A DNA stretch of 64,000 bases, taken from Candidatus Sulfomarinibacteraceae bacterium. Its GTDB lineage: Bacteria > Acidobacteriota > Thermoanaerobaculia > Thermoanaerobaculales > Sulfomarinibacteraceae. Made by a program: the position numbers and the translations under genes. Below are positions 5,709-42,868 of this stretch, in pieces. The notes beneath the pieces are model-generated. The model was not told where the DNA came from, made no database searches, and worked only from the letters and a program-made list of their open reading frames with translations. Where the stretch lies: assembly GCA_963796455.1 (NCBI GenBank), contig CAWCLO010000004.1, positions 192,001 to 256,000 of the forward strand. The letters run 5' to 3'. The stretch's first letter is position 1. Every line of letters begins with the position of its first letter.

Positions 5709-5726
5709 AGTGGTGGGGGAGACCAG

Positions 5727-8697: not shown

Positions 8698-10113
8698 TCA
8701 GCCTTGGACCACGGTCCACCCACCAAATCCGGACTCAAAGTCATCGTTGAAGATGTCCTGGCCGCCGGGCTCACCGGAGCCACCGGCACCGAATTCGAAG
8801 GCCCCGAGATCCACGATGGCAGACCCGTTGCCGTCGCCGTCCGCGGGACGATCGTTGCCTTCACAGTCTTTTGCGGCTGCGAGCGCGTTCGAACCGGCGT
8901 CGATGGCCGGGGAGGTATCGGGAATCTTGAAGTTCTGGGCGCCTGGATTGACGAGGAGGGGATTCGACTGAATCGAATTGGAGCCCCATCCGTATCCGTT
9001 TTGACTGCGGAACTGGCTGACGGAGCCGGTCCTCCACGGCGGCCAGGAGACGACATTCGAGGAACTCGGCGACCACATGAGATTGTGGCTGGTTTCGATG
9101 GTCGGAAGGTTGTTGCCCTCTTCGTAGATCACCATCGCCGGGCCGTCACCGCGCGACACCATGAGGTTGTTGTGCACGGTATGACCTCTGCCCCAGAGAG
9201 AGATTTCGCCGGTGCCGTCATACCTTCCGAGACTGTTTTTCCAGCAGGTGTTGTTACGGATGGTGGCGTTGTCACTGTTGAAGATGTCCATGCACCAGCC
9301 TTCGTTTTCCCAGATCACGTTGTTTTCGATCAGGGCGCTGGCTGACGCGGTGCAATAGTCCAAAATGATCCCGTGACCCTCGGTCTCGCGATAGTCTTCG
9401 TCGGTATTGCCCCAGATGTGGTTGCCGCGAACAACGTTTTCGCCTTCGCACTCCCAGAGCGAGATCGGGCTCGTCCAACCGGTCAGATAATTATCGTGGA
9501 TTCGGCAATTCTCGATGGTCAGTGACGCCGCCCTCTGCGAACTGATCCCACCCCAGACACAACCGGAGAGATCGACGTTTTTGATTACGATGTCGCTCGA
9601 CTCCGAAACCATGATGCCCACCTCGGGGAATCCTTCGATGACGAATCCGTTGATCTCGACGTATTGAGGCGTAAAGCCGCCGCCTCCGGCCGCGATCACG
9701 CCGTAGATAGCTCCACCACTGGGATTGAGGACCACATTCTCGCCGGGTGCGGCGATAAATTTGATTGGGGACTGTTTGGTACCGCTGACGCAGATTTGCA
9801 GGACCGCTGCGCCCCAGCTCAGAGGATGTTGATGGTGAGTCTCAGAATAGACCCCTTCTCTGACATAGACAACATCACCGCTCTGGACGTCGGTGCCCGC
9901 TTTGGCCAGGGTGCACCACGGAGCGGATTGCGAGACCTGATTGCGTGCCCGATTGTCGTTGCACTGGCCGCCAAGCGAATTCCGGTCGACCCAGAGCTCG
10001 GCGGCACTGGCCGAGGAGGTCACGACGAAAAACACTATAAATGCAAGTAAATAAATAACTTGTATCTTAGACAATCGATTTTTCGCGACCTGAAAACCGA
10101 GAAAATTTGACAT
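8698..10113 (-). CDS. Secreted right-handed parallel beta-helix protein with choice-of-anchor Q-like tail (paralog 1)
   Basis: Signal peptide, PWCTL...GDVVYVREG, NosD-like repeats, SPAIDAG..DGDG..DLGAFE, final DIFNDDFESG..W tag. Confidence 0.85.
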   Translation of the reverse strand: MSNFLGFQVAKNRLSKIQVIYLLAFIVFFVVTSSASAAELWVDRNSLGGQCNDNRARNQVSQSAPWCTLAKAGTDVQSGDVVYVREGVYSETHHQHPLSWGAAVLQICVSGTKQSPIKFIAAPGENVVLNPSGGAIYGVIAAGGGGFTPQYVEINGFVIEGFPEVGIMVSESSDIVIKNVDLSGCVWGGISSQRAASLTIENCRIHDNYLTGWTSPISLWECEGENVVRGNHIWGNTDEDYRETEGHGIILDYCTASASALIENNVIWENEGWCMDIFNSDNATIRNNTCWKNSLGRYDGTGEISLWGRGHTVHNNLMVSRGDGPAMVIYEEGNNLPTIETSHNLMWSPSSSNVVSWPPWRTGSVSQFRSQNGYGWGSNSIQSNPLLVNPGAQNFKIPDTSPAIDAGSNALAAAKDCEGNDRPADGDGNGSAIVDLGAFEFGAGGSGEPGGQDIFNDDFESGFGGWTVVQG

Positions 10114-10300
10114 AGTTCCACCCTCCATACCAAAACGGTTAAAAATCGAATGCGGCGCGCTGTTCCGGGCTACGCCGCTCTCAACAAGGGCCCACTCCGA
10201 GATTTATGTTATTGGACATCGTTCCTCGAGACAGTGCTCCTGGTCACATTTACCGGGGATGTGATGAGAATGGTAGATCTGACAGGATTGCCGGTAAGTG

Positions 10301-10420
10301 CCCGAATTGCAGCGGCAGCGACAGTGTCCAGCGGCAGCGACAGGGATCAGGGGCTGGGAACAGCGATCAGCGGCAGCGATCAGGTCCGTTCCTGAACGCC
10401 ATTCAAGACTCTGTCTTGGA
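10301..10420 (+). repeat. Short ORF-less member of the IR element family
   Basis: CCCGAATTGCAGCGGCAG ... GACTCTGTCTTGGA ends. Confidence 0.65.
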
Positions 10421-10467
10421 AAAAAGTTGCTTTTGGAATGAAGGGGAAAGTCAGGGCTCGGACCGGT

Positions 10468-11913
10468 TCAGGGTTGGGTTCCCGTCCAGGCCGAGGTGCT
10501 GCCGCCTTCGAAACTGTCTTCGAAGATCCCGGTGAACTCGTAGGCACCCAGATCGGTCTGCGCGCTGCCATCCCCATTGCCGTCAACCGGTCGCAAGACA
10601 CCGATGGCGTCTTTGTCCGCGCCATCGGCATCGCTGCCTGCGTCGATGGCTGGCGATGGCGGAGTGGGGTCGAAGGAATGGGATGCCGGTGCCCTGAGCA
10701 ATGGGTCCACCTGGATCGAGTTCTGCCCCCAGCCATATGGGTTCGCCTGTTGAAACTCGGCCACGGTGTCCACGTTCCACGGCGGCCAGATCACCACATT
10801 CTGACGATTTGGCGACCACATGAGGTTGGAGCCTGTTGCGACCGTGCTGAGGTCTCCGTCCCTTTCATAATCAAAAATGAGGAGGGCGGGGCCGCCCTCA
10901 CGGGAAACGAGGATGTTGTTGTGTGCCGACAACTGATTGCCCCGGAGCGACAGTTCACCCGTTCCGTTGTTGCGGCCGAGGCTGTTCTGCCAACAGGTGT
11001 TGTTGCGGATGGTGGCGCCGTCGCTTTGGTAAATAAGGATGCACCAACCTTCGTTGTCCCAGATCACGTTGTTTTCGATCAAGGCACCACCGAGTTCAAA
11101 ACAACTGTCCATGATGATGCCGTGACCTTCGGTCTCGTCGGGGTGCTCGTCGGTATTGGCCCAGATACGGTTGCCGCGGATGACGTTTTCATCTTCGCAT
11201 TGCCAGAGATTGACCGCGCTGGTCCAGCCACCGATCGGGTTGTCATGGATTGATGAATTCTCGAGGGTGATGCGCCCGGCGTAGTTGGTTGAAAACGCCG
11301 CGTTCACACACCCGCTGATGTCGAGATCGCTGAGGGTGACATCGCTCGTCCGGTTGACGTAGACACAGATATCGGTGAATCCGCCGCTCACTTCGAAACC
11401 CGAGACCTCGATGAAACGAGGCGTGACACCCGTGCACTGTCCGACCACGATGCCCATTTCCGCCCCGCCGGCGGGCGAGAGGGCGACCCGTTCGCCCGGT
11501 TCGGCAACGAATTTGATCGGGTTTTGCGCCGTCCCGCTGACCACGACCTCCAGGACACTGGGCGAGCAACACAGAGGACAGGTGTTTCTTTCGGTATAGA
11601 CGCCGCCACGAACATGTACGGTATCGCCGGGTTGAACCAGGGTGGCGGGTGGGATCAGCGTGCACCACGGGGTTGATTTCGTGACCTGGGCACGGGAACG
11701 GGCGTCGCTGCATTGCCCGCCGAGCGAGTCACGATCGACCCACAGATCCGCTGCCATCGCCGGTGGAATGAAAAACAGAATTGCGAAAAGCCAACCGATC
11801 GCTGCAAATGTATGCGGCCGCAACAGATTCGGTCGCGAGAAGCACTCTGCAGACCTGACCCGAAAACCCTTCGGGCACAAGATGCACGGTGCATGCGGGC
11901 GGTTATGGTTCAC
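10468..11913 (-). CDS. Secreted beta-helix protein (paralog 2)
   Basis: Same motifs as paralog 1, ends IFEDSFEGGSTSAWT. Start estimated at the GTG at 11913 after AAGGA; the longer listed ORF overlaps the neighbouring gene. Confidence 0.8.
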   Translation of the reverse strand: MNHNRPHAPCILCPKGFRVRSAECFSRPNLLRPHTFAAIGWLFAILFFIPPAMAADLWVDRDSLGGQCSDARSRAQVTKSTPWCTLIPPATLVQPGDTVHVRGGVYTERNTCPLCCSPSVLEVVVSGTAQNPIKFVAEPGERVALSPAGGAEMGIVVGQCTGVTPRFIEVSGFEVSGGFTDICVYVNRTSDVTLSDLDISGCVNAAFSTNYAGRITLENSSIHDNPIGGWTSAVNLWQCEDENVIRGNRIWANTDEHPDETEGHGIIMDSCFELGGALIENNVIWDNEGWCILIYQSDGATIRNNTCWQNSLGRNNGTGELSLRGNQLSAHNNILVSREGGPALLIFDYERDGDLSTVATGSNLMWSPNRQNVVIWPPWNVDTVAEFQQANPYGWGQNSIQVDPLLRAPASHSFDPTPPSPAIDAGSDADGADKDAIGVLRPVDGNGDGSAQTDLGAYEFTGIFEDSFEGGSTSAWTGTQP

Positions 11914-11963
11914 TGGCAGATCCTTGTTGAAAGATAGCACAAAACCGGGCGAACAACCGTGGA

Positions 11964-13514
11964 TCATGGGGAGGGTTGGGATCGCCTGGCCCGGATCCTC
12001 ATGGATGACAGCGATTTCGCCAAATCTTCGATTCTTTTTCGACCGAAGGGATTCCGGCCGGGCGAGGTGCTCATTCGAGCCTTTTCGAGCTCGGCAACGA
12101 CCCGGTCGAAAGGGGCATCCACGGTCACGAGTTCCCCGTCGATACTGATTCGCGCAATGTTCGCGACGCCTCGTGCCACCCTTTCGGCCGCAACTACAGA
12201 CAATGAGGGCGAGTCGGGCGATGAGGTCAGAACTGCGGTGATGTTCTGTTCGACTGCGGATCTGAAACGAGGCCGCAAGGCTGACATTTTTTCGTGAAAG
12301 ACCACCATCTGATCGGCCCCGCCGGCGGCCGATCGTGACGCCAGACCGGCCAGCGGCTGCCGCATCTCTTCCATCACGATCGCGAGGTCGGAGTCGGCTC
12401 CCTCGACGATCTCGTCTCCGGCGCCCAATGAAGAAAACCAACTCATGATCCCGTTGGCAAAGGATATGAATCGTCCAGGTCGGTCATCGGGTGTTGATTC
12501 TGCGCCGGGCCACCAGATATTGAAACCAAATGGGGTGTTTCGGTCGCTCTCATCGCCGAACTGCAGGTCGAAAGGAGGGCGGCCGGTGCGGGGGAAAGCC
12601 ATATTCCCGGCGATATCCAGGTTTGTACCGAGCACCGAGAGCTCACCAGTGTCGTTTCCGCGCCCCAGCCCATTGCCCACACAGGTGTTGTTGCGAACGG
12701 TCACATTCGAGGAATGGAAAACGTGGACACACCACCCCTCGTTGTCCCAGATGACGTTGTCTTCGACGATCGCGCCTCCCCAGTCCTCGCAATAGTCGAG
12801 GATGATGCCGTGTCCCTCGGTCTCGCGAGCGTCCTCGTCGGTGTTGCTCCAGATCGCGTTTCTCCGCAGGATGTTTCCGTCCTGGCAGGTCCACAGGGAT
12901 ATGGCGCTGATCCAGCCCTCGAGTGCGTTATGGTGGATGCGGCTGTCCTCGATCGTCACTCGCGCCGAGTGTTGGGTGCCGATGGCCCCCCAGCGACAAT
13001 TAGTGACCTCGATATTTTTGAGGACAACATCACCGGTGCCTTCGATCATGACGCCGAGTTGATCGAAGTCCCGGATCTCGATATTCGAGACCTCGATATG
13101 ACGAGGTTGGAAGTCCTGATTTCCGGCGACCAGGACCCCGTAGTCGGCACCACCCGAGCCCGAGAAGACCACTGATTCTCCCGTTTCGCCCATAAAAATG
13201 ATTGGTGCCTCCGGAGTCCCGCTGACAACCATCTGCAAGACCGCCGAGTCCCAGCAATGTTCGTTTCCGGTGTGAATCGCGGTGTATTCGCCGCCTCGAA
13301 TGTGGACCACGTCTCCCGGCTGGACGTTGTTTGCCGCCTGCTTGAGCGTGCACCACGGTTCCGAGCGGCTCACATCGGATCGATCCCGGTGATCGGAACA
13401 GATCCCGCCTGTGGAGTCTTGATCGACCCAAAGGACTGCCGCTACAGCAACGGGACTCCACCAAAGGATCGCTACCGCAATCACCCGTGTGGCGATCGTC
13501 GGCAGTTGCGTCAT
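11964..13514 (-). CDS. Secreted beta-helix protein (paralog 3) with a divergent C-terminus
   Basis: LWVD..GG.CSD, PWCTL, ETEGHGIILDYC, NEGWC shared. The anchor-Q tail is replaced by an unrelated helical region. Confidence 0.8.
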   Translation of the reverse strand: MTQLPTIATRVIAVAILWWSPVAVAAVLWVDQDSTGGICSDHRDRSDVSRSEPWCTLKQAANNVQPGDVVHIRGGEYTAIHTGNEHCWDSAVLQMVVSGTPEAPIIFMGETGESVVFSGSGGADYGVLVAGNQDFQPRHIEVSNIEIRDFDQLGVMIEGTGDVVLKNIEVTNCRWGAIGTQHSARVTIEDSRIHHNALEGWISAISLWTCQDGNILRRNAIWSNTDEDARETEGHGIILDYCEDWGGAIVEDNVIWDNEGWCVHVFHSSNVTVRNNTCVGNGLGRGNDTGELSVLGTNLDIAGNMAFPRTGRPPFDLQFGDESDRNTPFGFNIWWPGAESTPDDRPGRFISFANGIMSWFSSLGAGDEIVEGADSDLAIVMEEMRQPLAGLASRSAAGGADQMVVFHEKMSALRPRFRSAVEQNITAVLTSSPDSPSLSVVAAERVARGVANIARISIDGELVTVDAPFDRVVAELEKARMSTSPGRNPFGRKRIEDLAKSLSSMRIRARRSQPSP

Positions 13515-13520
13515 CTGGCC

Positions 13521-15047
13521 TCAGTCCTGGTTTGCGGAGTCTCGTTCGCTCCGCTGGACGCCCCGGGTTCGCGATTCTTTCCCGCTTTGTTGCGGGCGGA
13601 TCCTCCGGTCGACGCCGTCGTTGCGGTTTCGGATCAGCGGGTTGTATTCGTAGGCGCCTCGGTCGGAGGTTGCGCGACCGTCCCTGTCCCCATCGAGAGG
13701 CCGCGATTGTCCGACGGAATCGAATGCGGGAGACATGGAGTCGGTGGCGCTGTCGATGGCGGGGGACTCGCTCGATAATCTGAAATCGCCGAATGAAGGG
13801 GCGAGGAGTTTCGGGTCCTCCTCGATCGTGTTTTCGTCGAGACCATATTTCTCGTTTGCGTAGAGGGTGATGCCTCGAAATTCGCTCGAGTGACGAGCAG
13901 TCTTGGCCGTCTCTGGCGACCAGAAGATGTTGAAATCGGATACGATCGTGTCCGGGTTGCCACCGTCCCACATCTGAAAAGCCTGGGTTCCGTATCTGGC
14001 CACCAGAATGTTGTTGTGGACGGCGATCTCGTTGCCGACCGCCAGGATTTCTCCGGTGCCGTCGTATCGTTCTCGACTGTTTCGGTAGCACGTATTGTTC
14101 CGGACGGTGGCGTTCGAACTGAAGAAGACGTTGATGCACCAGCCTTCATTGTCCGAGATGACATTGTTCTCGACCAGCGCGCTCGCGGTGGATTCGCAGT
14201 AGTCCAGGATGATGCCGTGGCCTTCGGATTCGCGCCAATCTTCGTCGGTGTTGGCCCAGATGAAATTTCCCCGAAGGATATTTTCTCCCGTGCATTCCCA
14301 GAGGCTGATGGCGCTCGTCCAGCCCTCGAGGGCGTTGTCGTGGATGCTCGACGACTCGATGGTCACGCTGTTGGATTGAATAGACCCGATCGCCCCCCAC
14401 CTGCAACCGGAAACATCCAATTTTCTGAGGGTGATGTCGGAGGCGCCGGTGATCATCACTCCGACCTCCGGAAAACCTTCGACGACAAAACCTTCGACGA
14501 CCACGTGACGCGGGGTAAAACCGGTGCCTGCGGCCGCGAGGATGCCATGCTCGGCTCCACCGCCGCTGCCAAGGGTCACCGTTTCACCCGGAAACGCCTT
14601 CCAGAGGATTGGAGCTTGTTGTGTGCCGCTGATCACCACCTGAAGAACCGCTGCGTTCCAGGCCTGGGGATGATCGGTGAGGATCTCCGTGTAGAGGCCT
14701 TCGCGAACGTACACCACGTCTCCTGGCTGGACCCTGTTGCCAGCCACTCCGATGGTGCACCAGGGCGCCGTAACGCTTACGTCCTGCCGGCTCCGGCCGT
14801 CGCTGCATTGGCCTCCGTAGGAGTTGCGATCCACCCACAGGTCGTTTGCTGCAACCGTCGCACCGCTGAGCACAACCGCAACGAGCGCCAGAATGCATCG
14901 CCGAATTCGGCCCGATCGCGGCGCGGAGCGTCCTGAAGAAGGACCCAGCGTCGGGCTTCTGTGCAGTCGGTGGGATGTGTGTAAATGCGTCATGATGCCA
15001 CGATTCAAAGCCGACCTGCCGCTCGATTCGGAGAGCAGACCATTCAA
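13521..15047 (-). CDS. Secreted beta-helix protein (paralog 4)
   Basis: Same motifs, anchor-Q-like tail, ends with ..DRRIRP.. Start uncertain. Confidence 0.8.
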   Translation of the reverse strand: MNGLLSESSGRSALNRGIMTHLHTSHRLHRSPTLGPSSGRSAPRSGRIRRCILALVAVVLSGATVAANDLWVDRNSYGGQCSDGRSRQDVSVTAPWCTIGVAGNRVQPGDVVYVREGLYTEILTDHPQAWNAAVLQVVISGTQQAPILWKAFPGETVTLGSGGGAEHGILAAAGTGFTPRHVVVEGFVVEGFPEVGVMITGASDITLRKLDVSGCRWGAIGSIQSNSVTIESSSIHDNALEGWTSAISLWECTGENILRGNFIWANTDEDWRESEGHGIILDYCESTASALVENNVISDNEGWCINVFFSSNATVRNNTCYRNSRERYDGTGEILAVGNEIAVHNNILVARYGTQAFQMWDGGNPDTIVSDFNIFWSPETAKTARHSSEFRGITLYANEKYGLDENTIEEDPKLLAPSFGDFRLSSESPAIDSATDSMSPAFDSVGQSRPLDGDRDGRATSDRGAYEYNPLIRNRNDGVDRRIRPQQSGKESRTRGVQRSERDSANQD

Positions 15048-17735: not shown

Positions 17736-17805
17736 GTGCAGCCGGGACGGCTGCACCACCATGGCGCTCAGCTGTTTATCCTGGTGGTGCAGGCGTCCCG
17801 CCTGC
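17736..17805. repeat. REP doublet (REPIN-like), left of RAYT
   Basis: Two inverted GTGG-type palindromes; these 70 bp are identical to 18461-18530. Confidence 0.9.
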
Positions 17806-17841
17806 CCATTTTCGCTGTGGCGATGCAATACTGAGTAAAGA

Positions 17842-18456
17842 ATGACTCCCGAAAATAGACGCGGACCGCTTTTCCCCGAACGGTTTGTCGACCCGAAGTC
17901 GCGACCCTTCACATCGACGAAATGGAGGGGAAACCTGCCGCACATCTACAAAGAAGGCGGCACATACTTCGTTACATTTTGTCTTTTTGATGCGATGAAC
18001 CGCGGACGAAAAGGGCCAGAACGCTCCGACGATTGGACCGCCGTCGCAGAGAGCCTCGATACGGACCCAAGTATTGGTGCATGCATTCTGAGACGCCCGA
18101 CGATCGCGGGTTTGGTGGAAGGGGCACTCCTTTATTTTCAGGGTGAACGGTATTTGCTGAGCGCCTGGTGTGTGATGCCGAACCATGTCCATTGCGTGGT
18201 AACACCGGCTTCAGATCACGACCTGTCGAATGTTCTTCACTCATGGAAATCGTATACGGGTCATGCGATCAACAAACGGCTCAACCGGGAAGGCGTGGTG
18301 TGGCAGCAGGAGTCGTTCGATCATTTCGTTCGGAACCCGAGTGCCTTTGAACGCTTTGTCGCTTACACCGAAAACAACCCAGTGACCGCCGGGTTGTGTG
18401 ATCGTCCGGAAGATTGGTTGTTCAGCAGCGCAAGGCATCGGGGAAACCCGGGATGA
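17842..18456 (+). mobile_element. REP-associated tyrosine transposase (RAYT, Y1 HUH family)
   Basis: NLPH..TYFVTFCL, VMPNHVH (HUH), SWKSYT, WQQESFDH, YTENNPV, WLFSS; flanked by REP doublets. Confidence 0.92.
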
Positions 18457-18460
18457 TTTT

Positions 18461-18532
18461 GTGCAGCCGGGACGGCTGCACCACCATGGCGCTCAGCTGT
18501 TTATCCTGGTGGTGCAGGCGTCCCGCCTGCAC
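18461..18532. repeat. REP doublet, right of RAYT
   Basis: Direct repeat of 17736-17805. Confidence 0.9.
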
Positions 18533-24325: not shown

Positions 24326-25684
24326 TTACTCGACGACCGAGCGTGCGATCTCACCGCGAAACTTCCACGACATCCGCGCCAGAAGGAAGGCCGCGACCGT
24401 GAAGAGCCCGACGACCAGCCCCCACCACAGACCCTCGGGACCGAAACCCAGGTGAAATCCGAACAGCAGGCTGGCGGGCAACCCGATCAACCAGAAGCCG
24501 ATGAGATTTGCGACCAGTGGTGCCCTGGTGTCGCCGGCACCGCGCAGTGCGCCGGCAGATACGACCTGGATGCCGTCGACGATCTGAAAAAACCCGGCGA
24601 TCGGAATCAGGAGTGATGCCAGGACCACGACCTCTTCCACCGACGTATAGACTGAGGCGAGCAAGCGTGGCAGACCGATGAAGAGGGCTGCGGTTATCGA
24701 CATAAAGGCAGCTCCGACTATCAATCCGGCGCTCGCCGCCCGTCTCGCGGCATCGCTTCTTCCGGCGCCGATCGCCTGCCCGACCCGGACCGCGGTTGCA
24801 GACGCCACGCCGAGCGGCACCATGAATGTCAACGAAGCCATATTGATGGCAACCTGATGAGCGGCCATTTGCAGGGTGCCCATGCCGCCCATCAACAAGG
24901 CGATGACTGCAAAGGCGATGATCTCCAGTTGGAGTTGGAGACCGATCGGCACGCCCATCCGAATCGTTCTCCAGAGAGGGTCCCATCGAAATGCGGCCCG
25001 ATCGATAGTGCTCAGGACCGGTGCGAGTTCCTTTCGTGCGATGACGATGAGGACCACGAAGAGGAGGCTGCGCGCTGCGGTTGTCGCCCACGCCGACCCC
25101 ACGGGACCGAAGCCGGGGATCGGACCGGCGCCAAAGACGAGGATCCAGTCCGCCACCAGGTTGAAAATGTTGACCACGATGATCGTCACCACGACCGGGC
25201 GCATCCGTTCCATTGACTGGAGTGCGAGTCGCAGCACATAAAAGGCGTAGTAGGGGAGCAGCCCAGGGATGCAGATCCGGACGTAGGATGCGGCGACGGG
25301 GACGATTTCGGATGGTTGGCCGAAGATCCTCAGCATGGGCTCTGTCGGCAAGAGGAGCAATGTGCTTGGAATCATCAAACCGATCGAAAGGAGCAGACCG
25401 CGTTGCACCGAACGCCTGAGGGCGTCCGGATCTCCGGCGCCGACGGCTTGCGACACCAGTGGGTCGAGCGCCAACAACAAACCGATACCAAAGGCGGATA
25501 CGGCGACGACCATGACGTGTCCGAGCGCCACGGCGGCAAGGGCTTCGGAGGAGAGGCGGCCGACCACCATCGTGTCCACGACGCCGAGCAGCATCATCCC
25601 CACCTGGACCACCACCACTGGTGCTGCCAGGCTGAACATCGCCGAAATATCCCGGTGGCGCGGGGTCCTGAACGGGTGCGTCAT
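24326..25684 (-). CDS. MATE family efflux transporter (NorM-like)
   Basis: VDTMVVGRL, 12-TM pattern, FQIVDGIQVV..GALRG. Confidence 0.93.
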   Translation of the reverse strand: MTHPFRTPRHRDISAMFSLAAPVVVVQVGMMLLGVVDTMVVGRLSSEALAAVALGHVMVVAVSAFGIGLLLALDPLVSQAVGAGDPDALRRSVQRGLLLSIGLMIPSTLLLLPTEPMLRIFGQPSEIVPVAASYVRICIPGLLPYYAFYVLRLALQSMERMRPVVVTIIVVNIFNLVADWILVFGAGPIPGFGPVGSAWATTAARSLLFVVLIVIARKELAPVLSTIDRAAFRWDPLWRTIRMGVPIGLQLQLEIIAFAVIALLMGGMGTLQMAAHQVAINMASLTFMVPLGVASATAVRVGQAIGAGRSDAARRAASAGLIVGAAFMSITAALFIGLPRLLASVYTSVEEVVVLASLLIPIAGFFQIVDGIQVVSAGALRGAGDTRAPLVANLIGFWLIGLPASLLFGFHLGFGPEGLWWGLVVGLFTVAAFLLARMSWKFRGEIARSVVE

Positions 25685-25713
25685 TTGGTTGCGGAGGATA
25701 GCAGCAATTATTG

Positions 25714-25761
25714 GAGAATTCGGAATTCGGAATTCGGAGTTCGGAATTAGGAATTAGGAAT
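25714..25761 (+). repeat. Heptamer tandem repeat GGAATT(C/A)
   Basis: About 6-7 units directly before the IR element; AGGAATTCCGAAT resumes after it. Confidence 0.8.
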
Positions 25762-25922
25762 CACCCTTGTCCAAGACATTGGGGACAGCGACAGGGAACG
25801 GTGGGTAGCGTCAGCGACAGCGTCCAGCGTGCAGGGACAGCGACAGGAGGCAGCGTCAGCGGCAGGGATCAGCGAACAGGGACGGCGACAGGGAACAGCG
25901 ATCAGGAGTCCAGTCGGCGAAG

Positions 25923-26059
25923 TGGCCACCTCCGGGTCGTTCAAAGAAAGGAGTAGCCGGTGGGCGGCCGATGTCAAGGACAGGCAGGGTGCAGGGCATC
26001 CTTGACATCGGCCACCACACCGGCTTGTGGGTATGGGCATGAACGACCCGGAGGTGACC
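25923..26059 (+). promoter_or_regulatory. Long nested leader hairpin covering the RBS of the four-helix-bundle gene
   Basis: CACCTCCGGGTCGTTC pairs with GAACGACCCGGAGGTG; inner AGCCGGTG/CACCGGCT and GGCCGATGTCAAGGA/TCCTTGACATCGGCC stems. Confidence 0.75.
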
Positions 26060-26413
26060 ATGTCCAACGCCGCCACGAACACCAACCTCGTTGCCCACTC
26101 GAAAGCCCTCGAAGCAGCAGGAATCGCGATCAATCTGGTAATGAGAGTTCCCGCTCCACTGAAGTCCATAGCCGATCAGGTGATCCGGTCGGCAAGTTCA
26201 GTCCCTGCGAACCTGGCAGAAGGGCACGGCCGTTTCGGTAGAGACCGGTCGAACCACTGGAGAATCGCCTACGCCTCGGCCAAAGAGGTCGACAGCCACT
26301 TGCAGCTCCTCGCTCACGCCGGGGCGATCAGCCGGAATCGAGCCAGTGAAGCGATGAAGGCCTTCGATGAGGTCCGTGCCATGACATGGCGACTTTTGAA
26401 CCCGACGAAATGA
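26060..26413 (+). CDS. Four-helix-bundle protein (23S rRNA-IVP family)
   Basis: DQVIRSASSVPANLAEG..R..IAYASAKE signature; GGAGGT RBS before the ATG at 26060. Confidence 0.9.
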   Translation: MSNAATNTNLVAHSKALEAAGIAINLVMRVPAPLKSIADQVIRSASSVPANLAEGHGRFGRDRSNHWRIAYASAKEVDSHLQLLAHAGAISRNRASEAMKAFDEVRAMTWRLLNPTK

Positions 26414-26573
26414 GTGCTGTTCGGTGTCGCTGCCCCGGCCGCTGGACACTGCCGCTGCCGCTGACTCCTGTTCGCCGACGCTGCCCACCGTTCCCTGTCG
26501 CTGTCCCTGCACGCGATCCGAGAATCTGTCTTGGACAAGAGATAGGAATTCCGAATGAGGTTTTAGTGCGGAG

Positions 26574-27389
26574 TCATTTGGATTCGATGCCAAAGCTCCG
26601 TTTTTGGTTGATCATCAACTCGAGCGGCGCGGCGGCCGGACAGAACGAAGCAGCGAGCTCCCGGCGAAAGGGTTCGAAGGAGGCGGCGATGGCCGGTGGG
26701 AGGCCGTCCTGCCAGGGGATTCTCGAGGTGTCGTCCTGCAAGATCTTGATTTCGGCCTCGAGAGCGGAGATCTCATCCTCGGCGAAACCCTGTTCCCGCA
26801 TGGCGGCAGATTGGTTCTCGAGCATCGACCGCAAAGCACCTCGCACCCGCGAGTTCACGGGACCCGGACCGAAGAGCTGGAACTCCCCGGACGGATTCAA
26901 CAGCTCGTCGTGGAATCCCATGACAAAGAGGTAGGTGAACTCTCCCAGTCCCATCTCCGCCTCCAGGAGCCCACGATTGCGAATCTCGTAGAGTTGGCCG
27001 ATGACCGGTCCGACCCCCATCATGCTTTTGGTGGTGGAGAAAGCCATCTTCATCACTTCGATGCGGTCGATCTCGTCCTGATCGTCAACACTCTCGAGCC
27101 TGGCAACCTGCTGCTCGGCGTTCTCGAGATCGGAGCACACATCAACCAGTGAGCGTTGGATCTCGAGGAAGAGCTCGACGCGGTCCGCAGTGGGCGCTCC
27201 CGAAGCGGGAGGAACGTAGTCCTCCTGGGTGCCGAATTTTTCCTCGATCACCTCACGGTCGTCGACTGCCTGGTTGAGCGGCGCCACGATCATGACACCC
27301 AGAATCACCGGCAGAGCGATGGCGGCGACCAGGGCGATTCCGCATCCGACGGCCGTCGTTTTGAGGCAGCCCCACTTTTTGTCGTCCAC
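26574..27389 (-). CDS. Hypothetical membrane-anchored protein
   Basis: GC...GC plus TM N-terminus; acidic helical body; GGAGG RBS. Confidence 0.75.
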   Translation of the reverse strand: MDDKKWGCLKTTAVGCGIALVAAIALPVILGVMIVAPLNQAVDDREVIEEKFGTQEDYVPPASGAPTADRVELFLEIQRSLVDVCSDLENAEQQVARLESVDDQDEIDRIEVMKMAFSTTKSMMGVGPVIGQLYEIRNRGLLEAEMGLGEFTYLFVMGFHDELLNPSGEFQLFGPGPVNSRVRGALRSMLENQSAAMREQGFAEDEISALEAEIKILQDDTSRIPWQDGLPPAIAASFEPFRRELAASFCPAAAPLELMINQKRSFGIESK

Positions 27390-27510
27390 TCGACCTCCGT
27401 CGTCGTTGTGGCGTCCAGAGGAACGCCTACAGGATTCAACGTTTGGGACTGCAAATGGTTAACAAACAATCGAAACGGAATGATCGCGGGCCGGCCCCGG
27501 TTGCCAGGGT

Positions 27511-28272
27511 ATGGCCAACAAGATGCAACCGGATGTTCGCAACCACGCCGCCTGGATCGGGCCTCTGGTCTCGATCGCCGGCGTCTTGAGCTATTTCACC
27601 GTGATGGTCCGTTTCCCCGGTCTGAGGGACAGCGCGATCGTCAATTTGCTGATGGTCGGGATCGGCACGGCCATCGCTGCATGGGCACTGTCGAGGCGCC
27701 GGAACTGGAAGAGTTGGCTCGGTCTCGTGGGTGCCGCGGTGCCAGCGATATTGCTCTTCGCATACGTATTCGGATTCTCCAGTCAGATTCCACCAGCTGG
27801 TCTCGAGGCCTCTGTCGGATCGCCGGCGCCGCCTCTGGAGCTACCCGATCAGGGTGGCCGAATGATCTCGCTGGCGGACTACGCCGGCGAACGGGTGGTG
27901 GTGGTTTTCTTCCGCGGAAATTGGTGACCATTCTGTCGCTCAGAGCTGCAAGGTCTGCAGTCACGTATTCAAGATATCCGTTACGCCGGTGCCGAGGTGA
28001 TCGCGATTTCGGTCGACACCACCGAAGAAAACGCCCGGTTGGCTAAATCACTCGGTCTGGATTTCCCCATCCTCTCCGACGCCGCTGGCGTGGCGATTAC
28101 GACCTGGGGTCTGGTCCACGAGGGGGGCAAACCGGGGGGCGGCGCCATCGCGCGTCCGGCGACCTACCTTGTGGAACCCGACGGTACGATTTCTTGGCGC
28201 AACTTGACCGAAAACTATCGAATCAGGGTGCGGCCGGAACACGTCCTGGATGCGTTGGCCGCAAAAAGTTGA
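27511..28272 (+). CDS. Membrane-bound peroxiredoxin-like (AhpC/TSA) selenoprotein, UxxC
   Basis: FFRGNW-TGA(27925)-PFC continues in frame into AISVD..FPILSD..RPATYLV; SECIS-like hairpin downstream; 3 N-terminal TM helices. Confidence 0.88.
27943..27962 (+). promoter_or_regulatory. Bacterial SECIS element
   Basis: GAGCTGCA-AGGTC-TGCAGTC starts 15 nt after the UGA and closely resembles the fdhF SECIS upper stem-loop (GGUUGCAGGUCUGCACC). Confidence 0.75.
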
Positions 28273-28345
28273 CGGATCACGCCGCCTGGAGAGAATCGAT
28301 ATAGTAGTGGCCGGAGGCTTGACCTTGAGGCCAATTCGATCCGTC

Positions 28346-29371
28346 ATGAATATTCTCTGCGTTCTGCTTTTCGCGGCAGAGGTCGCCTTCGCTGCCGAAA
28401 CGGTTGTCGAGCCTCTGAGTTTTGTTCCGGTCGTGGTTCTCAGTTATGCCGACCCTGACTCCGGGGAAATTTTCGAATGTGGTCCCGGCTGCCGTCGATT
28501 CAAAGTTCCCGAGGGTATCAACCTCGATATTCAGGTGCGAATCGAGAATCCCGACGGCAGCGTGAGCGGTGAAGGGCTGGTCTGGGATCTGTGGTTCAAT
28601 CAACCGCTTCATCCCTTTCCCGGTGTCCATCTCGAAGACTGTCAGATTGGCGACGGCAGTCAAATCGACGCCGAGTGTTGGCGGGCTGCCATGCTCCGGG
28701 TGGACTGGCAGTCGTGGACAGATCTGAGCGCCGATCGCGTGTGCGTCCCGTCATCAACGGACAGCTGTCGAGAAGAGACTGTTCGGCTTTTTATGGATGC
28801 CGATTTCGATGGTGCAAGGCGACCCGGGACCTACCACATCGCATTGTGGCTTGACCGTTTCCGTATCTCTGCCGACCGAGATGAGTTCGACAATTTTATT
28901 GGACCGATCCGAGTGACGGTCGTTCCGCGGGACGGTGGAGACGACTCTCAGCATGTCGCCCCACCACAGGAGGTCGGACAGGGCCCCGTGATCGAGCCGT
29001 CCACGGCGAAACCGTGGACTGGAGTCATTGAGCCGGGGGAAGCCGACAACGGATTCTCGTTGGGGTCAGAGCGTGCGCGCGGTATTCTCGCCTTCGAACC
29101 GGGGCTCCCGGGGCCGGTGGAGATCGAGATCGAACAGGTCGGCGATCCGCAGATGGTCATTGTCGAGGTGCAAAAGGTCTCGACCGGGGAAGTTTTGGCT
29201 GAGGCCCGCGATCGGGGCAGGATCCGGCTCAACGGCACCATCAGACCGGAAATGCTCAAGGATGATCGCCGATTCGAGGTGGTGGTCAGATCAACGACCA
29301 GGCCGCAGGGTCTGCGGGGCATTATTCGGGTGAGATACCCGAAGCGTGTTCGGTTCCACCCGGTGGATTGA
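28346..29371 (+). CDS. Hypothetical secreted protein
   Basis: Long ORF with a signal-like start and paired Cys; start uncertain. Confidence 0.7.
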   Translation: MNILCVLLFAAEVAFAAETVVEPLSFVPVVVLSYADPDSGEIFECGPGCRRFKVPEGINLDIQVRIENPDGSVSGEGLVWDLWFNQPLHPFPGVHLEDCQIGDGSQIDAECWRAAMLRVDWQSWTDLSADRVCVPSSTDSCREETVRLFMDADFDGARRPGTYHIALWLDRFRISADRDEFDNFIGPIRVTVVPRDGGDDSQHVAPPQEVGQGPVIEPSTAKPWTGVIEPGEADNGFSLGSERARGILAFEPGLPGPVEIEIEQVGDPQMVIVEVQKVSTGEVLAEARDRGRIRLNGTIRPEMLKDDRRFEVVVRSTTRPQGLRGIIRVRYPKRVRFHPVD

Positions 29372-29379
29372 CCGACGCC

Positions 29380-29997
29380 GCAACCACCAAGACACCAAGA
29401 CTCGAAGGAGTCACACCAAGAAAACCACAGAGGCCACAGAGACACAGAGAGATCACAGAGGAGAAGTGCAGCCGAGACGGCTGCACCACCATGGTGGTGC
29501 ACGCGTCTCGCGTGCACATTGATGAACCGCGAAGAACGCAAAGAACGCAAAGGCGCAAAGACGCCAAGGCACGGTTGCCGGGATTGTGCGGTGGTGCCAT
29601 CGGTGTCGGCAGATCGACAGACGATCTCCGATCGCCCGTCGCCGGTGAGAAGCGGGGTGCCTCCAATCGCCAGCGCTCGGAGTCACCCCGCTCCCCACCG
29701 CCCGGCACGCCTACGGCATGCCGGATCTGCCTTACATCGGAGACCCCCTCTCTTGATTGAAGGGGAGGGGAGGAAGGAGGCGAGACCTGCGCGGTCGCGC
29801 AGGCCGCTGGGCGGAGGGTTCTTCCAGGATGTCCTCTGCGTCTCTGCGTCTTTGCGTTAAGAACCCGGGAGGTGGACGCCGCTAGGTTGCAGCGGGATCT
29901 GTTGGCCCTGCAATGAGGCTGTCATCTGGGCGAATCCGTTTGATCTGTGGGCAATTTGCGGTGTTTTGCGATGGCCCGGAGCCTCTGTGGTTTTTCC
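29380..29997. repeat. Composite nested repeat, copy 1 (ACACAGAG and CGCAAAG tracts, REP doublet, structured core, inverted closing tracts)
   Basis: 29466-29860 aligns with 31991-32390; AAAACCACAGAGGC pairs with GCCTCTGTGGTTTT. Confidence 0.85.
29608..29731 (-). ncRNA. Candidate four-way-junction structured RNA, copy 1
   Basis: Closing stem GGCAGATC/GATCTGCC with three internal hairpins that pair fully only on the minus strand via G-U. Confidence 0.45.
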
Positions 29998-30082
29998 GCT
30001 GAAGCCCAATCAGCCGGTCTCGGCTCCGCGGGTGTAGAATCCGGTGTCAGCGGTGGAAATCACCGACTGAAGGGGGCTGGCG

Positions 30083-31673
30083 ATGCTGCGTCGGGCTTTT
30101 CCGGTTGGCACAGTCGCGTTTTTTATGGCGTTGATGTCTTCGGTTGCGGCTCCGGCTGAACAGCCGCCTCAACGTCCCGAGGGCCCCATCGGAATGAGCT
30201 CGGCCCCCGATATCTCCAGACTTCTCGGTCCCGGAACCCCGTCACCAGATCGTCGGCGCAAGCTGCCGATGCATCGAGGCGTATCGACAAAATCCCTCGA
30301 GGACTCGGTGGATCTCTGCGTCGAGGGTTATCATGGCGCTGATCGATGCTCCCGGAGCCGCGGTGGCCGTGGTCCAGAATGGTGAGCTGGTTTATGAAGC
30401 GGGATATGGCGTCAAGCTTCGTGGCGGCAACGATCTAATCGATCGCCACACCATCTTTCGTATCGGGCCGATCACCAAGCAGATGACGGCAGCCGCCGTC
30501 ATGCAGCAGGTCGAATTGGGGCGGGTGGCCCTTTCGGATCCCGTCACCGAGCTCATCCCGGAATTCGAGATCGCAGGGCGTTGGCCCGCCGACCAGATCA
30601 CCGTTTGGAACGCGCTGACCCACACCAGCGGATTTCCCGATTGGGTCGATTCCGATCCGGTCCGATCGAACGCCGCTCTCTCGTTGTGGGCTGGGCGACA
30701 GCTCGAGGTCCCGCTCCACGCACCCCCCGGTTCCTTTTGGAACTATGCGAGCCCGAACTACATGATTGCGGGCTTGATCGCCGAGCGCGCCGCGGGAACT
30801 CCATACCGTCAGCTTTTCAAAGAAAACTTGTGGCAGCCCGCCGGTATGGATTCCACGACCTTCAGCCCGGACGAGGTCATCGGTTCCGGGAACTATGCCT
30901 ATGGCCACTGCTATACCTGCGCCATCGGCGGCGAGCGAATCGTGGTGCCTGAAGAACACGATCTGTGGGCAGTCGGACCCGCCGGAATGGCGTTTTCGAC
31001 GGCGGGCGATCTGGCCAATTGGGCCTTGTTGTTGATGAATGGGGGAGGGTCTGTCCTGTCCCCTTCATCCGCGTCGATCATGCAGGAAAGACACCAGTGG
31101 ATGCACCTCACACCGGATCAATACTACGGACTCGGCATCATGACCGAGAACTATCGTGGGCTCGATGTTCGTGCGCACGGAGGGGTGATCACAGGCTTTG
31201 GCGCTCATCTGTTGTGGGTCTCGGAGTATGGTTTTGCCGTTGCCGTCCTTGTCAACGTCACCTCGACCCTCGACGATCTCGCGCACTGCATCATCGACGA
31301 AGTGCTCGGCCCTGACCCGGTCGAGCCACCCGATCTTCACACCGATCCTTCGACCTGGGCCCGTTACGAAGGAGACTATCTGTTCCGCGGGATCGACAGC
31401 ACCCAGGGGGCGCAGGTCTTCCTCGATGGTGAGGAACTTTTCATCACCCTCGAAGATCCGGTTCAAGCCGGCGTCAGCTACACCACCGAGTTGGTGCAAC
31501 AGTTCTCGGATACCTTCTGGTTCGACTCCAACGAGGATGGATCACCCGAGACCGAGATCACCTTTTGCAGCAGCGATGGTGAACCGGGTTTTGTCAGGTG
31601 GCTGCGCAACCGGCGTGCGGTGGCTGAACGGCAGTTCTCACCGCGCTCCGCGGGCCGGCGGGTCACGCCCTGA
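30083..31673 (+). pseudogene. Beta-lactamase-family serine hydrolase, frameshifted, with degenerate catalytic motifs
   Basis: The signal-peptide ORF at 30083 joins the ORF at 30333 by removing one base near 30328. FRIGPITK has Pro at the SxxK serine; LTHTSG, YASPNY and HGG are present. Confidence 0.7.
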
Positions 31674-32130
31674 TCGATATCCCGGAGCTGAGAAACTGGA
31701 AGAACGCCCGCAGATCACGCAGAGAGACCCAGATTGATCATCTTTTTCGCTATCGCTATCGCTATCGCTATCGCTATCGCTATCGTCTGGAGACTGACCG
31801 GATTTGCCCACAGATCTCCCAGATGACCCGGATGGCCGGCGTCGCAACCACAAAGACACAAAGACACAAAGCAGTCACACCAAGAAAACCACAGAGGCAC
31901 GGAGACACAGAGAGGGAACACAGAGGGCCTGGCGCAAAGGCCACAGAGCACACAGAAAAACACAGAAGCCATCGCACAGGCACGACCGGAGTGCAGCCGG
32001 GACGGCTGCACCACCATGGTGGTGCACGCGTCTCGCGTGCACATGGTTGAACCGCAAAGAACGCAAAGTCGCAAAGACGCAAAGACGCCAAGGCGCGGTT
32101 GGCGAGATTGTGGGGGGTGCCATAAGTGTC

Positions 32131-32254
32131 GGCAGATCGACAGACGATCTCCGATCGCCCGTCGCCGGTGAGAAGCGGGGCGCCTCCGATCGCCAGCGCT
32201 CGGAGTCACCCCGCTCCCCACCGCCCGGCACGCCTACGGCATGCCGGATCTGCC
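32131..32254 (-). ncRNA. Candidate four-way-junction structured RNA, copy 2
   Basis: Near-identical to 29608-29731; the differences keep or improve the pairing. Confidence 0.45.
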
Positions 32255-32395
32255 TTGTGTCGGTGACACCCTTTCTTGATTGAAGATGAGAGGAGGAAGA
32301 AGGCGAGACCTGCGCGGTCGCGCAGGACCTCGCCGGGCGGAGGATTCTACCGGGACGTCCTCTGCGTCTTTTCGACTTTGCGTCTTTGCGTCACT

Positions 32396-33204
32396 CTTGT
32401 CCAAGACTGCGTCTCAGACAGCGATCAGCGTCAGCGAACAGTAGTCAGCGAACAGGAGTCAGCGTCACGTATGACTGGTATGGAGCCCTGAAATCAAGAC
32501 TCTGGGTTGAGTAAACGCCAGGTCATCGCACGGACTTGATCGAAGGCGTTCATCGCATCAATGGCTCCGTTCGGGCTGATCGCCCCGGCGTGGGCGAGGA
32601 GCTGCAAGTGGCTGTCGACCTCTTTCGCCGAGGCGTAGGCGATTCTCCAGTGATTCGACCGGTCTCTACCGACTCGGCCGTGCCCTTCTGCCAGATTCGC
32701 AGGGACCGAACTTGCCGACCGGATCACCTGATCGGCTATGGATTTCAGCGGAGCCGGAACCCTCATCACGAGCTTGATCGCGATTCCTGCCGCTTCGAGG
32801 GCCTTCGAGTGGGCAACGAGGTTGGTGTTCGTGTCGGCTGAGGACATGGTCACCTCCGGGTCGTTCATGCCCATACCCACAAGCCGGTGAGGCGGCCGAT
32901 GTCAAGGATGCCCTGCACCCTGCTTGTCCTTGACATCGGCCGCCCACCGGCTACCCCTTCCTTGGAACGACCCGGAGGTGGCCACTTCGTCGCCTGTAAT
33001 CCTGACCGCTGCCGCTGCCGCTGCCGCTGATCACTGAACACTGATCGCTGTTACCTGTCGCTGCCCCTGGACTCTGTCGCTGCCGCTGCAATTCGGGATC
33101 GGGAACGGGTAGGGGCCAACCGCGAACCGGATATGCCAAAAACCAACCCGTAAACCACGTGTTGTCAGGTGGGAAGCTTCAGGTGACGATCTGTTTTGGA
33201 CAGC
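32396..33204 (-). mobile_element. IR-bounded element carrying a four-helix-bundle gene (copy B)
   Basis: Left CTTGTCCAAGAC; right CTGCCGCTGCAATTCGGG (to 33097) and degenerate TGTTTTGGACAG (33192); same leader hairpin as copy A. Confidence 0.7.
32494..32847 (-). CDS. Four-helix-bundle protein (23S rRNA-IVP family), close paralog of 26060-26413
   Basis: Same signature and length (117 aa) with few substitutions. Confidence 0.9.
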   Translation of the reverse strand: MSSADTNTNLVAHSKALEAAGIAIKLVMRVPAPLKSIADQVIRSASSVPANLAEGHGRVGRDRSNHWRIAYASAKEVDSHLQLLAHAGAISPNGAIDAMNAFDQVRAMTWRLLNPES

Positions 33205-33443
33205 AGCGTCTTTGCGTTAAAACCTCGAGAGGCTGAGGCCGTTTTTTGCAGAGGTGGCTGATGGCGCTGCAACCGGGCTGTCATGTGCGTCGATCTGCGT
33301 GATCTGCGGGCAATTTGAGCGGTTCTTCCAACGGCTTTTTTTCTGGGTGCCTCTGTGGTTTTCTCGGGAAGGCCGTGTGGCATACCGTTCGCGGGCCTGC
33401 CCTGATATTCTCTCCCCTGCATTTCGCACCGGGGGGATTCCAG

Positions 33444-41189: not shown

Positions 41190-41285
41190 CTGCATCCTGC
41201 ATCCTGTCTGCATCCTGCATCCTGCATCCTGCATCCTGCATCCTGCATCCTGCATCCTGCATCCTGCATCCTGCATCCTGCATCC
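41190..41285. repeat. Heptamer tandem repeat (CTGCATC), about 13 copies
   Basis: Counted directly; one 4-bp interruption. Confidence 0.95.
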
Positions 41286-41286
41286 G

Positions 41287-41610
41287 CTACCAGATTTCGG
41301 GTGGGGCCTTGAGCCTCTCGACGGCTTGCCCGCCGAGGAGGTGGTCGTCAAAGATTTCGCGAACATCGGCCGTGGTAACTCCGACGTACATGACGCCGTC
41401 GGGGTAGACGAGCACGCTCGGTCCGAGTTCGCACGGACCGAGGCAACCGCTGCGGGTGATCTTGATCCTGCCGTAGGCCTGCCGCGCCTCCATCAATCGG
41501 CCGAATTCCATCATCAGATCCTGGGCACCGCGTTCACCGCAAGATCCTTTGGGGTTCCCGGGCGGGCGTTCGTTGAGGCAGAGAAACACGTGTTTTTCGG
41601 GTCGGGGCAT
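41287..41610 (-). CDS. Thioredoxin-like [2Fe-2S] ferredoxin
   Basis: HVFLCLNER..SC..SGCLGPCELGP.VLVYPDG. Confidence 0.92.
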   Translation of the reverse strand: MPRPEKHVFLCLNERPPGNPKGSCGERGAQDLMMEFGRLMEARQAYGRIKITRSGCLGPCELGPSVLVYPDGVMYVGVTTADVREIFDDHLLGGQAVERLKAPPEIW

Positions 41611-42578: not shown

Positions 42579-42652
42579 GGCGTTACCCTAACCCGACGCC
42601 ACGGATACGGCAAGGGACAACCGGTCTGCTCGCACCGGGCGTGTCGGGGCAA

Positions 42653-42835: not shown

Positions 42836-42868
42836 ACCCGGCCCTTATCACGAACGACGTCTCCGGTA

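Follow-up and report, generated by a model that had tools for sequence, protein, structure and literature searches.

A transposase-less cassette with IS4-family-type ends and a four-helix-bundle gene in a Candidatus Sulfomarinibacteraceae genome

The flagged unit and its relatives

The window considered here is a stretch of 64,000 nucleotides from the genome of a Candidatus Sulfomarinibacteraceae bacterium (C4:192001-256000, in an assembly of 5.02 Mb, 10 contigs and 90.5% completeness), and positions given without a contig refer to it. At 25762-26543 it holds a unit bounded by terminal inverted repeats (TIRs), hereafter copy 1, with CAGCG-rich inverted arms, a leader hairpin and a gene for a protein of 117 amino acids, which is described below as a probable non-autonomous transposon cassette. 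Its perfect 13-bp inverted repeat (CTTGTCCAAGACA at 25766-25778, with the complement at 26527-26539) is nested within 18-nt ends (25762-25779 and 26526-26543). The first-pass annotation of the window had reported a 774-bp unit with this repeat, inverted arms, a leader and one 117-aa open reading frame (ORF), all of which are seen in the sequence. It had also placed no transposase in the unit, as is confirmed here: none was found inside any copy, the only ORF with a family match being that of PF05635.

Reading inward from the ends, copy 1 consists of a left arm, the leader, the ORF and a right arm complementary to the left one, all on the plus strand. Both TIRs were placed by the coordinates of the end motif, the left one (CACCCTTGTCCAAGACAT, 25762-25779, plus strand) being of the right-end type and the right one lying on the minus strand (26526-26543). 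As seen by the sequence, an inverted-repeat search and the fold, the left CAGCG-rich arm of degenerate 6-7-nt repeats occupies 25780-25925 and its CGCTG-rich complement 26414-26525, the 36-nt stretch at 25782-25817 being 94% complementary to 26472-26507. The leader between them has two helices. The 5' strand of helix P1 (25926-25943, CCACCTCC...) is an anti-Shine-Dalgarno sequence that pairs with 26040-26057, as indicated by the fold and a leader alignment, and its 3' strand (26040-26059) holds the Shine-Dalgarno sequence GGAGGTG just before the ATG, while the hairpin P2 (25956-26024), recognised by covariation among copies, contains the invariant stem pair TGTCAAGG/CCTTGACA. The gene follows at 26060-26413, being assigned to the 23S_rRNA_IVP / S23p / TIGR02436 family of four-helix-bundle proteins by profile matches and an AlphaFold model. 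Folded as RNA, the whole copy reaches -407.9 kcal/mol, whereas the value for its 20 shuffled versions is -314.7 +/- 6.6 (z = -14.1). Copy 1 is an atypical variant without the ~95-nt left module of other copies and with the right-type end on both sides, which explains its perfect inverted repeat; the left and right ends of a usual copy differ in sequence.

The second full copy reported in the opposite orientation is real. Copy 2 (32392-33208, minus strand), delimited by blastn and motif coordinates, is the canonical form of 817 bp and shares 91% identity with copy 1 along 508 nt. On the minus strand, its left end lies at 33191-33208, its left module extends to ~33117 and its arm starts at 33080-33097, followed by the P1 5' strand (32965-32981), P2 (32883-32951), the ORF (32494-32847) and the right end (32392-32409). 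Its 9-bp target duplication, TCTTTGCGT, is exact (9/9) and lies at 32383-32391, with the twin at 33209-33217. Regarding the four ORF-less relatives also reported, all are significant matches, and the one at 5329-5712 (plus strand) is a real derivative of 384 bp, made of left arm, right arm and right end without a recognisable left end. The other three, likewise on the plus strand, turned out to be arm fragments of 57-128 nt, located at 7183-7266 (72% identity over 85 nt, E 8e-5), 10301-10428 (followed by a degenerate right end) and 44490-44546 (82% identity over 57 nt).

Across the genome, blastn of the unit returned 65 ORF-spanning copies with 82-90% identity, and the arms and the gene co-occur genome-wide, as had been presupposed at first pass. 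Typical copies, aligned with their flanks, measure 815-890 bp and run from a left end of type CACTGCTGTCCAAAACAG through the ~95-nt left module, a variable hexamer run, left arm, leader, ORF and right arm to a right end of type CACTCTTGTCCAAGACAG. The left module has 131 matches, 47 of them inside ORF-bearing copies and 84 outside, nearly all of the latter being followed by arms. Based on crude gene calls, 64 of the 65 ORF-bearing copies have a coding ORF on each side, at median distances of 142 and 114 bp.

Reduced forms are also abundant. TIR-bounded elements of 250-700 bp number 43, and a single ORF-less architecture recurs in 18 of them: the hairpin and nearly all of the ORF are gone, and a ~60-nt GC-rich palindrome resembling repetitive extragenic palindromes (REPs) stands in their place. 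Near-exact 9-bp duplications of their own are present at several of these loci (e.g., C1:92868 and C5:63916) and, consequently, the gene is not needed in cis for spread. At two other loci, C5:1335-2018 and C4:114700-115252, the same IS4-type ends and left module surround a different, non-coding-looking cargo with a GTCATCCTGAGCGGAGCG-type repeat, indicating that the frame carries more than one kind of passenger.

Ends, target duplications and candidate transposases

The 18-nt cassette ends fit the motif CACTSYTGTCCAARACAG, which occurs 270 times in the genome and forms 74 pairs spaced by 250-950 bp. In these 74 pairs, the 9 nt outside the paired ends agree at 77% of positions, compared to 52 +/- 1.6% for shuffled partners, and 9 is the sole matching register, as those of 7, 8, 10 and 11 nt give 13-19% only. 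The duplication is exact in 21 of the 74 pairs and matches at 8 or more of its 9 positions in 39, and a logo drawn from the latter gives the palindromic target consensus ATSCWGSAT.

This target recurs every 7 nt in heptamer arrays of the AGCATCC type. Arrays of 6-9-nt units are abundant in the intergenic DNA of this genome; those of period 7-8 number 1336 and sum to 43 kb (Tandem Repeats Finder, TRF), and 100 of them adjoin an end. Conversely, 93 of the 270 ends adjoin an array, mostly of the AGCATCC, AGGATGC or AGCATCG type. A heptamer array, (GGAATTC/GGAATTA)n at 25713-25761, also adjoins the left end of copy 1, outside the element, and at the empty orthologous site of copy 1 in a related genome (G022) a GGAATTY heptamer array is already there, after the start of a gene of the MATE family. 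The presence of the array in the empty site and the small share of arrays found at ends indicate that the arrays are pre-existing targets and neither parts nor products of the element.

Other arrays were noted in passing. Long simple arrays occupy 42605-42876, 43083-43425 and 41194-41299 in the window, with (AGAGGAGC)n picked up in 24 windows of 88 nt that overlap one another at a spacing of 8 nt, complement-type arrays ~400-700 nt from it and (CTGCATC)n there too. In related genomes, the autonomous insertion sequences (ISs) of the IS4 and ISL3 types, L001 (G017:C434) and L059 (G008:C1), are flanked by short tandem arrays, (ACTCAAA)n / (TTCTTAA)n and (GAGTTTT)n; thus, insertion into arrays seems general for transposons of this genus.

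Gene order around both window copies is conserved in the genus, and this permits a comparison with sites lacking the element. At the copy 1 site, the distance from the MATE gene to its neighbour is 268 bp in G022 and 850 bp here, and at the copy 2 site the same gene gap is 332-678 bp in G014, G003, G018, G010 and G015, compared to 1826-2167 bp here. Rather than occupying fixed syntenic positions in all relatives, as the first-pass annotation had allowed for, both window copies have empty sites in congeners, and both insertions appear lineage-specific from this comparison of gene order. Together with the 9-bp duplications and the 18-locus ORF-less subfamily, these empty sites bear out its view of a mobile family of full and reduced copies. 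Among contigs from sequencing reads, none bridging the element or showing an empty-site joint was found, the best runs matching at most 0.29 of the sampled words; one sediment run, possibly from the source sample, includes contig pieces identical to the copy flanks at low depth, one RNA-library run includes contigs of related ORFs, which is not a demonstration of transcription, and a run of raw reads gave nothing. Two joints that leave out the ORF were discarded, their sides being just 21 nt long.

The source of the enzyme was sought in this genome and in its relatives. Larger TIR pairs of 1.9-5 kb were checked as autonomous candidates, and three of 1.96-2.23 kb enclose ordinary genes, while the sole DDE_Tnp_1 gene of the genome (C7:291107-291601) was rejected, having unrelated ends. 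DDE_Tnp_1 genes were then sought in the 24 other genomes of the genus and their loci scanned for the end motif. At locus L001 of G017, a unit of 1411 bp carries the ends CAGTCTTGTCCAAAACCG and CACTGCTGTCCAAAACAG at its exact borders (2 and 0 mismatches to the motif) and encodes a protein of 402 amino acids with matches to DDE_Tnp_1 (1.3e-25) and DUF4372 (2.9e-24). A motif-like site in an IS of G006 (loci L006 and L011) was also inspected and discarded, being internal to a different IS with other ends. No PADLOC family matches either the four-helix-bundle protein or the G017 transposase.

As described for the IS4 family, the transposase signature is Y-2-R-3-E-6-K (PMC2266710), and the motif YKDRWQIELFFKALK of the G017 transposase has this spacing (YREK). 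The IS4Sa subgroup is listed with ends CA------T, direct repeats of 8-10 bp and a size of 1150-1750 bp (PMC2266710, Table 1); the cassette ends begin with CA, have T at position 9 and come with a 9-bp duplication, and the G017 IS itself fits an IS4-family element of the IS4Sa-like kind, judging by its motif, ends and size. Since the cassette ends equal those of an IS4-family IS from a congener, an enzyme acting in trans is the natural reading. Mobilisation would thus be the work of a cognate transposase, for which the G017-type IS or a relative is the candidate.

Taking these observations together, the unit is best read as a transposase-less cassette with IS4-family-type ends and 9-bp duplications, which a cut-and-paste DDE transposase provided in trans has probably moved. 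In the mechanism proposed, a DDE transposase from elsewhere would act on the 18-nt ends and move the cassette. The cassette inserts preferentially into AGCATCC-type heptamer arrays with duplication of the 9-bp target, and ORF-less derivatives have spread to other loci. The cargo is a self-contained module of the intervening sequence (IVS) type, in which two inverted microsatellite-like arms enclose the leader and the four-helix-bundle gene.

The same module is found in a second frame in related genomes. Elsewhere in the genus, only the arms, leader and ORF of the element find a match, and the protein identity of the module across frames is 71-86%. IS4-type ends with 9-bp duplications occur in this genome and in G006; the ends found around the module in G014, G008 and G005 are GG[CT]TC[AT]TCCGGAATT, of the ISL3 type. 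The motif GGCTCATCCGGAATT has 54 matches in G014 at two mismatches or fewer, compared to 3 for the control, and these ISL3-type ends are accompanied by 8-bp duplications at (T/G)AACGTTY, agreeing at 6-8 of 8 positions in 8 pairs. In addition, G017 carries an autonomous ISL3-family IS of 1303 bp with the same ends and target, whose transposase matches PF01610 (6.7e-69). A survey of 80 loci in 17 assemblies gave 30 with IS4-type ends (2 assemblies), 32 with ISL3-type ends (5 assemblies), 18 with neither and 0 with both. In the present genome, ISL3-type ends gave 37 hits at the same mismatch threshold, compared to 20 for a reversed control, and no pairs.

The passenger gene, its leader and its arms

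The 117-aa ORF matches PF05635 (1.1e-15, 58.2 bits, cut-off 33.8) and TIGR02436 (2.5e-16, 59.8 bits, cut-off 24). Its AlphaFold model, built on 13 relatives, has four helices and a predicted local distance difference test (pLDDT) score of 91.9. It superposes on 2gsc and 2rld with a template-modelling (TM) score of 0.82 and on Avd, a protein of diversity-generating retroelements (DGRs; 4dwl and 8ub7), with a TM of 0.77-0.84, a root-mean-square deviation of 1.6 A and an identity of 9-10%. Profile matches and superposition thus uphold the label of IVP/Avd-like that the protein had received. The genome has 70 matches to PF05635, 67 of them over the cut-off, and the four best-scoring belong to other subfamilies. 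Among the PF05635 genes, those at C4:1278094-1278408, C1:983149-983445, C9:2726-3031 and C10:733004-733315 score 75-110 bits, above the cassette genes; their open frames run to 122-150 aa, the usual length being 135, and they are not among the inspected blastn matches to the unit.

A recognisable leader is present in 63 of the 65 copies and an intact 117-aa ORF in 57 of 63, all 57 proteins being distinct. The pooled Nei-Gojobori estimate (pS 0.28, pN 0.054, dN/dS 0.16) indicates that the four-helix-bundle protein is under purifying selection, as far as substitution patterns can tell, and the variation of the protein is concentrated at residues ~90-102. With respect to orientation, the cassette ORF is antisense to co-directional neighbours in 24 of 31 copies (binomial p = 0.003), although the gene calls behind this figure are crude and rely on a criterion of third-position GC content (GC3).

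The leader was compared across 73 distinct sequences, drawn from this genome and, at 16 loci, from other species. P1 has 15 paired positions, of which 2 vary through standard pairs, 6 have no more than a rare mismatch in 1-2 leaders and 7 never vary. P2 presents compensatory changes across copies and species (GC 61 / AU 8; AU 56 / GC 16; CGGCCG...CGGCCG to CATTCG...CGAATG), and its core TGTCAAGG/CCTTGACA is invariant despite the covarying stem. An Rfam scan of 25600-33400 at E <= 1 found no family, with only a chance miRNA-hairpin match below threshold. From the modelled pairing, the anti-Shine-Dalgarno strand of P1 is predicted to hide the ribosome-binding site in RNA transcribed into the element from outside. 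The invariant TTGACA of P2 might conceivably be the -35 element of an internal promoter or a protein-binding palindrome; the promoter can be proposed only weakly, because 25700-26600 gave 0 promoters when scanned for the sigma-70 consensus and the -10 region of the leader is not conserved between species. The same scan gave 1 terminator-like site, which is at chance level.

Concerning the arms, in read-through RNA they are predicted to form a duplex of ~100 bp, which by analogy with the IVSs of 23S rRNA would likely be a substrate of RNase III. Arm pairing was computed on the 42 of 63 copies having all four anchors. The duplex energy is -113.1 kcal/mol with own partners and -114.0 with non-own partners, and the ranks of the own partners are evenly spread, so the arms pair generically, with no copy-specific co-evolution. 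No significant strand bias was detected in these duplexes (sense -113.1, antisense -111.2; sense stabler in 25 of 42 copies, Wilcoxon p = 0.16), in which G.U pairs number 304 in the sense and 238 in the antisense strand. Moreover, the genome has no reverse transcriptase, as judged by 0 matches to RVT_1. The first-pass picture, in which an RNA or single-stranded DNA (ssDNA) folds into a rod and is bound by the element's own protein, is therefore not supported, given the generic pairing, the absence of strand bias and the missing reverse transcriptase.

Competing explanations and relation to known systems

Some observations weigh against a cassette moved in trans. Copy 1 has no clean 9-bp duplication, with only 2 of 9 positions matching in the canonical register, and its structure is rearranged, the right-type end being present twice. 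This assembly has no homologue of the G017 transposase (tblastn best E 4.9), and neither has G006, which also bears IS4-ended cassettes; among the 119 genomes of the order, only 6 have homologues, and within the genus only 1 of the 24 others does. In G017, the one IS copy is itself without a clean duplication (4 of 9 positions), and IS and cassette share no sequence beyond their 18-19-nt ends. With the mobiliser missing from this assembly, the cassettes may no longer move here and may be fossils. Furthermore, the copies differ by dS ~0.35, which makes the amplification old, and any selection on the ORF may by now be host-level rather than element-level; the empty promoter scan described above belongs on this side too. 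These same points lend themselves to a domesticated multigene family, which spread long ago, is now fixed and is kept by the host for its varied proteins or for repeats serving as insulators or processing sites between genes. The missing cognate transposase speaks for it, as does the intactness of 57 of 63 ORFs in copies of such age, with a dN/dS of 0.16, 57 distinct proteins and variability gathered at residues ~90-102, and so does the antisense orientation in 24 of 31 copies (p = 0.003, on crude gene calls). Yet, both window sites are empty in congeners, which makes the insertions lineage-specific, and ORF-less derivatives have spread too. A dN/dS below 1 among copies can also arise from the propagation of intact-gene copies only, or from gene conversion, and the available account of the protein family gives it no established function (PMC4990558). 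Domestication is thus possible though somewhat doubtful, and it is compatible with, not opposed to, the cassette explanation.

The second frame raises the question of whether the cargo is the real selfish unit, that is, an IVS-type module which colonises the ends of different transposons as a free-living relative of the 23S rRNA IVSs, its protein acting on its own hairpin or arms. This is suggested by the occurrence of the same module within IS4-type ends with 9-bp duplications and ISL3-type ends with 8-bp duplications, by the autonomous ISL3 IS of G017 with matching ends and target, and by the 80-locus survey, with 30 IS4-type, 32 ISL3-type and 0 double loci. The tandem GACAGAT heptamers described for the Coxiella IVS (PMC4990558) also recall the GACAGCG-type arm units found here. 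On the other hand, a mechanism moving the module between frames is not shown, and a single nested insertion followed by decay fits as well; the 23S rRNA gene of the genome is without such an ORF, and the arms lack copy-specific co-evolution, which makes a selfish cargo unlikely. It seems similarly improbable that the module is a hitchhiker on IS4 and ISL3 ends, kept intact by a protein acting on its own structure (e.g., the TGTCAAGG/CCTTGACA hairpin), and the source of the 23S rRNA IVSs. Far less credible still is a rod-like RNA or ssDNA element, coated by the Avd-like protein and moving by a HUH/Y1 or reverse-transcriptase route. The long arms with their strongly stable fold (z = -14.1), the Avd fold of the protein (TM 0.77-0.84 to 4dwl and 8ub7) and the 6 Y1_Tnp matches of the genome, one of them in the window at ~18157-18318, would agree with it, but TIRs and 9-bp duplications are the signature of DDE transposition and the ends equal those of an IS4 IS. 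In addition, spread of the ORF-less form took place with no such gene in cis, RVT_1 matches are 0, the arms pair generically without strand asymmetry (25 of 42, p = 0.16), and the Y1 gene of the window is flanked by a different repeat, of the REP type.

Among known systems, the mobility of the cassette belongs to a described class, that of non-autonomous DDE-transposon cassettes of the mobile insertion cassette (MIC) or MITE (miniature inverted-repeat transposable element) type. The proposal of an undescribed system was therefore too strong, as this is the ordinary DDE transposition of a passenger-carrying non-autonomous element. The unusual parts are its high copy number, its conserved passenger, its two unrelated frames and its likeness to an IVS. 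With MICs it has in common the IS4-family ends, the lack of a transposase, an unrelated passenger gene, duplications of the length of the family and a presumed mobilisation in trans; MIC231 is reportedly built on IS231/IS4-family ends. MICs are found in few copies per genome, whereas here there are 65 gene-bearing copies and dozens of reduced ones, and the passenger lies in long inverted arms with its own leader, appears to be under purifying selection in nearly all copies and, in related genomes, is also found within ends of the ISL3 type. Measuring 300-560 bp, the ORF-less derivatives share with MITEs the ends, duplications, many copies and intergenic location, in contrast to the full form of the cassette, which is protein-coding and measures ~850 bp.

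With the 23S rRNA IVSs of Coxiella, Leptospira, Brucella and Xanthomonas, the cargo shares the PF05635 family, the fold of 2gsc and 2rld, an ORF inside a terminal stem and GACAG-type repeats. As described for Coxiella, the S23p ORF lies in the loop of a terminal-inverted-repeat stem cleaved by RNase III, with tandem GACAGAT heptamers beside the ORF, and it is said there to be decaying and probably not translated (PMC4990558). The same source leaves the origin of the 23S rRNA IVSs open, a transposition remnant being one idea (PMC4990558). The cassettes differ from these IVSs in lying outside rRNA, in having arms of ~110-150 nt compared to a 28-bp stem and in being bounded by transposon ends and target duplications, and from the Coxiella IVS in a conserved ORF with a strong Shine-Dalgarno sequence. 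The one 23S rRNA gene of the genome (C10:140644-143654, 3011 nt, 2925 model positions) contains no PF05635 match. Thus, the cargo is best regarded as working like an IVS-type module and not as a member of the IVS class. Regarding Avd, the four-helix-bundle fold is the same, but the identity is only 9-10% and the genome has no DGR reverse transcriptase (0 RVT_1). A limited literature search, judged on titles and the starts of abstracts, found no description of an S23p-family gene carried by a transposon.

REPs and bacterial interspersed mosaic elements (BIMEs), with their REP-associated tyrosine transposases (RAYTs, of the Y1 type), are likewise abundant intergenic palindromic repeats, and the window and genome contain both a RAYT-like gene and palindromes of a REP-like kind. 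REPs are short hairpins without TIRs or 9-bp duplications, and elements of the IS200/IS605 group have neither TIRs nor target duplication, their subterminal hairpins being recognised by the Y1 transposase. The cassette, in contrast, has 18-nt inverted ends and 9-bp duplications, and the Y1 genes are tied to a different repeat; a REP-like doublet does no more than take the place of hairpin and ORF in the ORF-less subfamily of 18 members.

The Y1 gene of the window is an ORF of 204 aa (17842-18456, plus strand) with a Y1_Tnp (PF01797) match at 18157-18318 and an HVH motif. Inverted arms of 73 nt (17736-17808 and 18460-18532, 77% complementary) border the gene, which looks like a RAYT with its repeats; the genome has 6 Y1_Tnp matches. 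REP-like GC-rich palindromes of the GTGCAGCC...GGCTGCAC type lie at 29466-29517 and 31991-32042, within a ~340-nt repeat whose two copies, of 93-95% identity, stand on either side of a gene (29590-29803 and 32113-32326 also belong to it). A related palindrome is the centre of the 18-member ORF-less cassette subfamily. Elsewhere in the window, 9202-14345 contains four direct copies of a 300-nt segment, with 65-73% identity and 1.4-1.75 kb apart, probably from tandem paralogous genes.

The S23p/IVP family is widespread, and its structures have been solved, with no known function. In the cassette family described here, a module of the IVS kind can be seen to be mobile: its ends are defined, duplications and empty sites accompany it, and there are candidate transposases. 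One genome offers 57 intact, diverged gene copies that seem to be under purifying selection, together with natural ORF-less controls. This opens questions that can be tested, namely whether the protein is needed for spread, whether it binds the hairpin and whether the arms are cut by RNase III. It is also a warning for annotation, as cassettes and their debris make up ~2% of the genome, by a rough estimate from copy counts.

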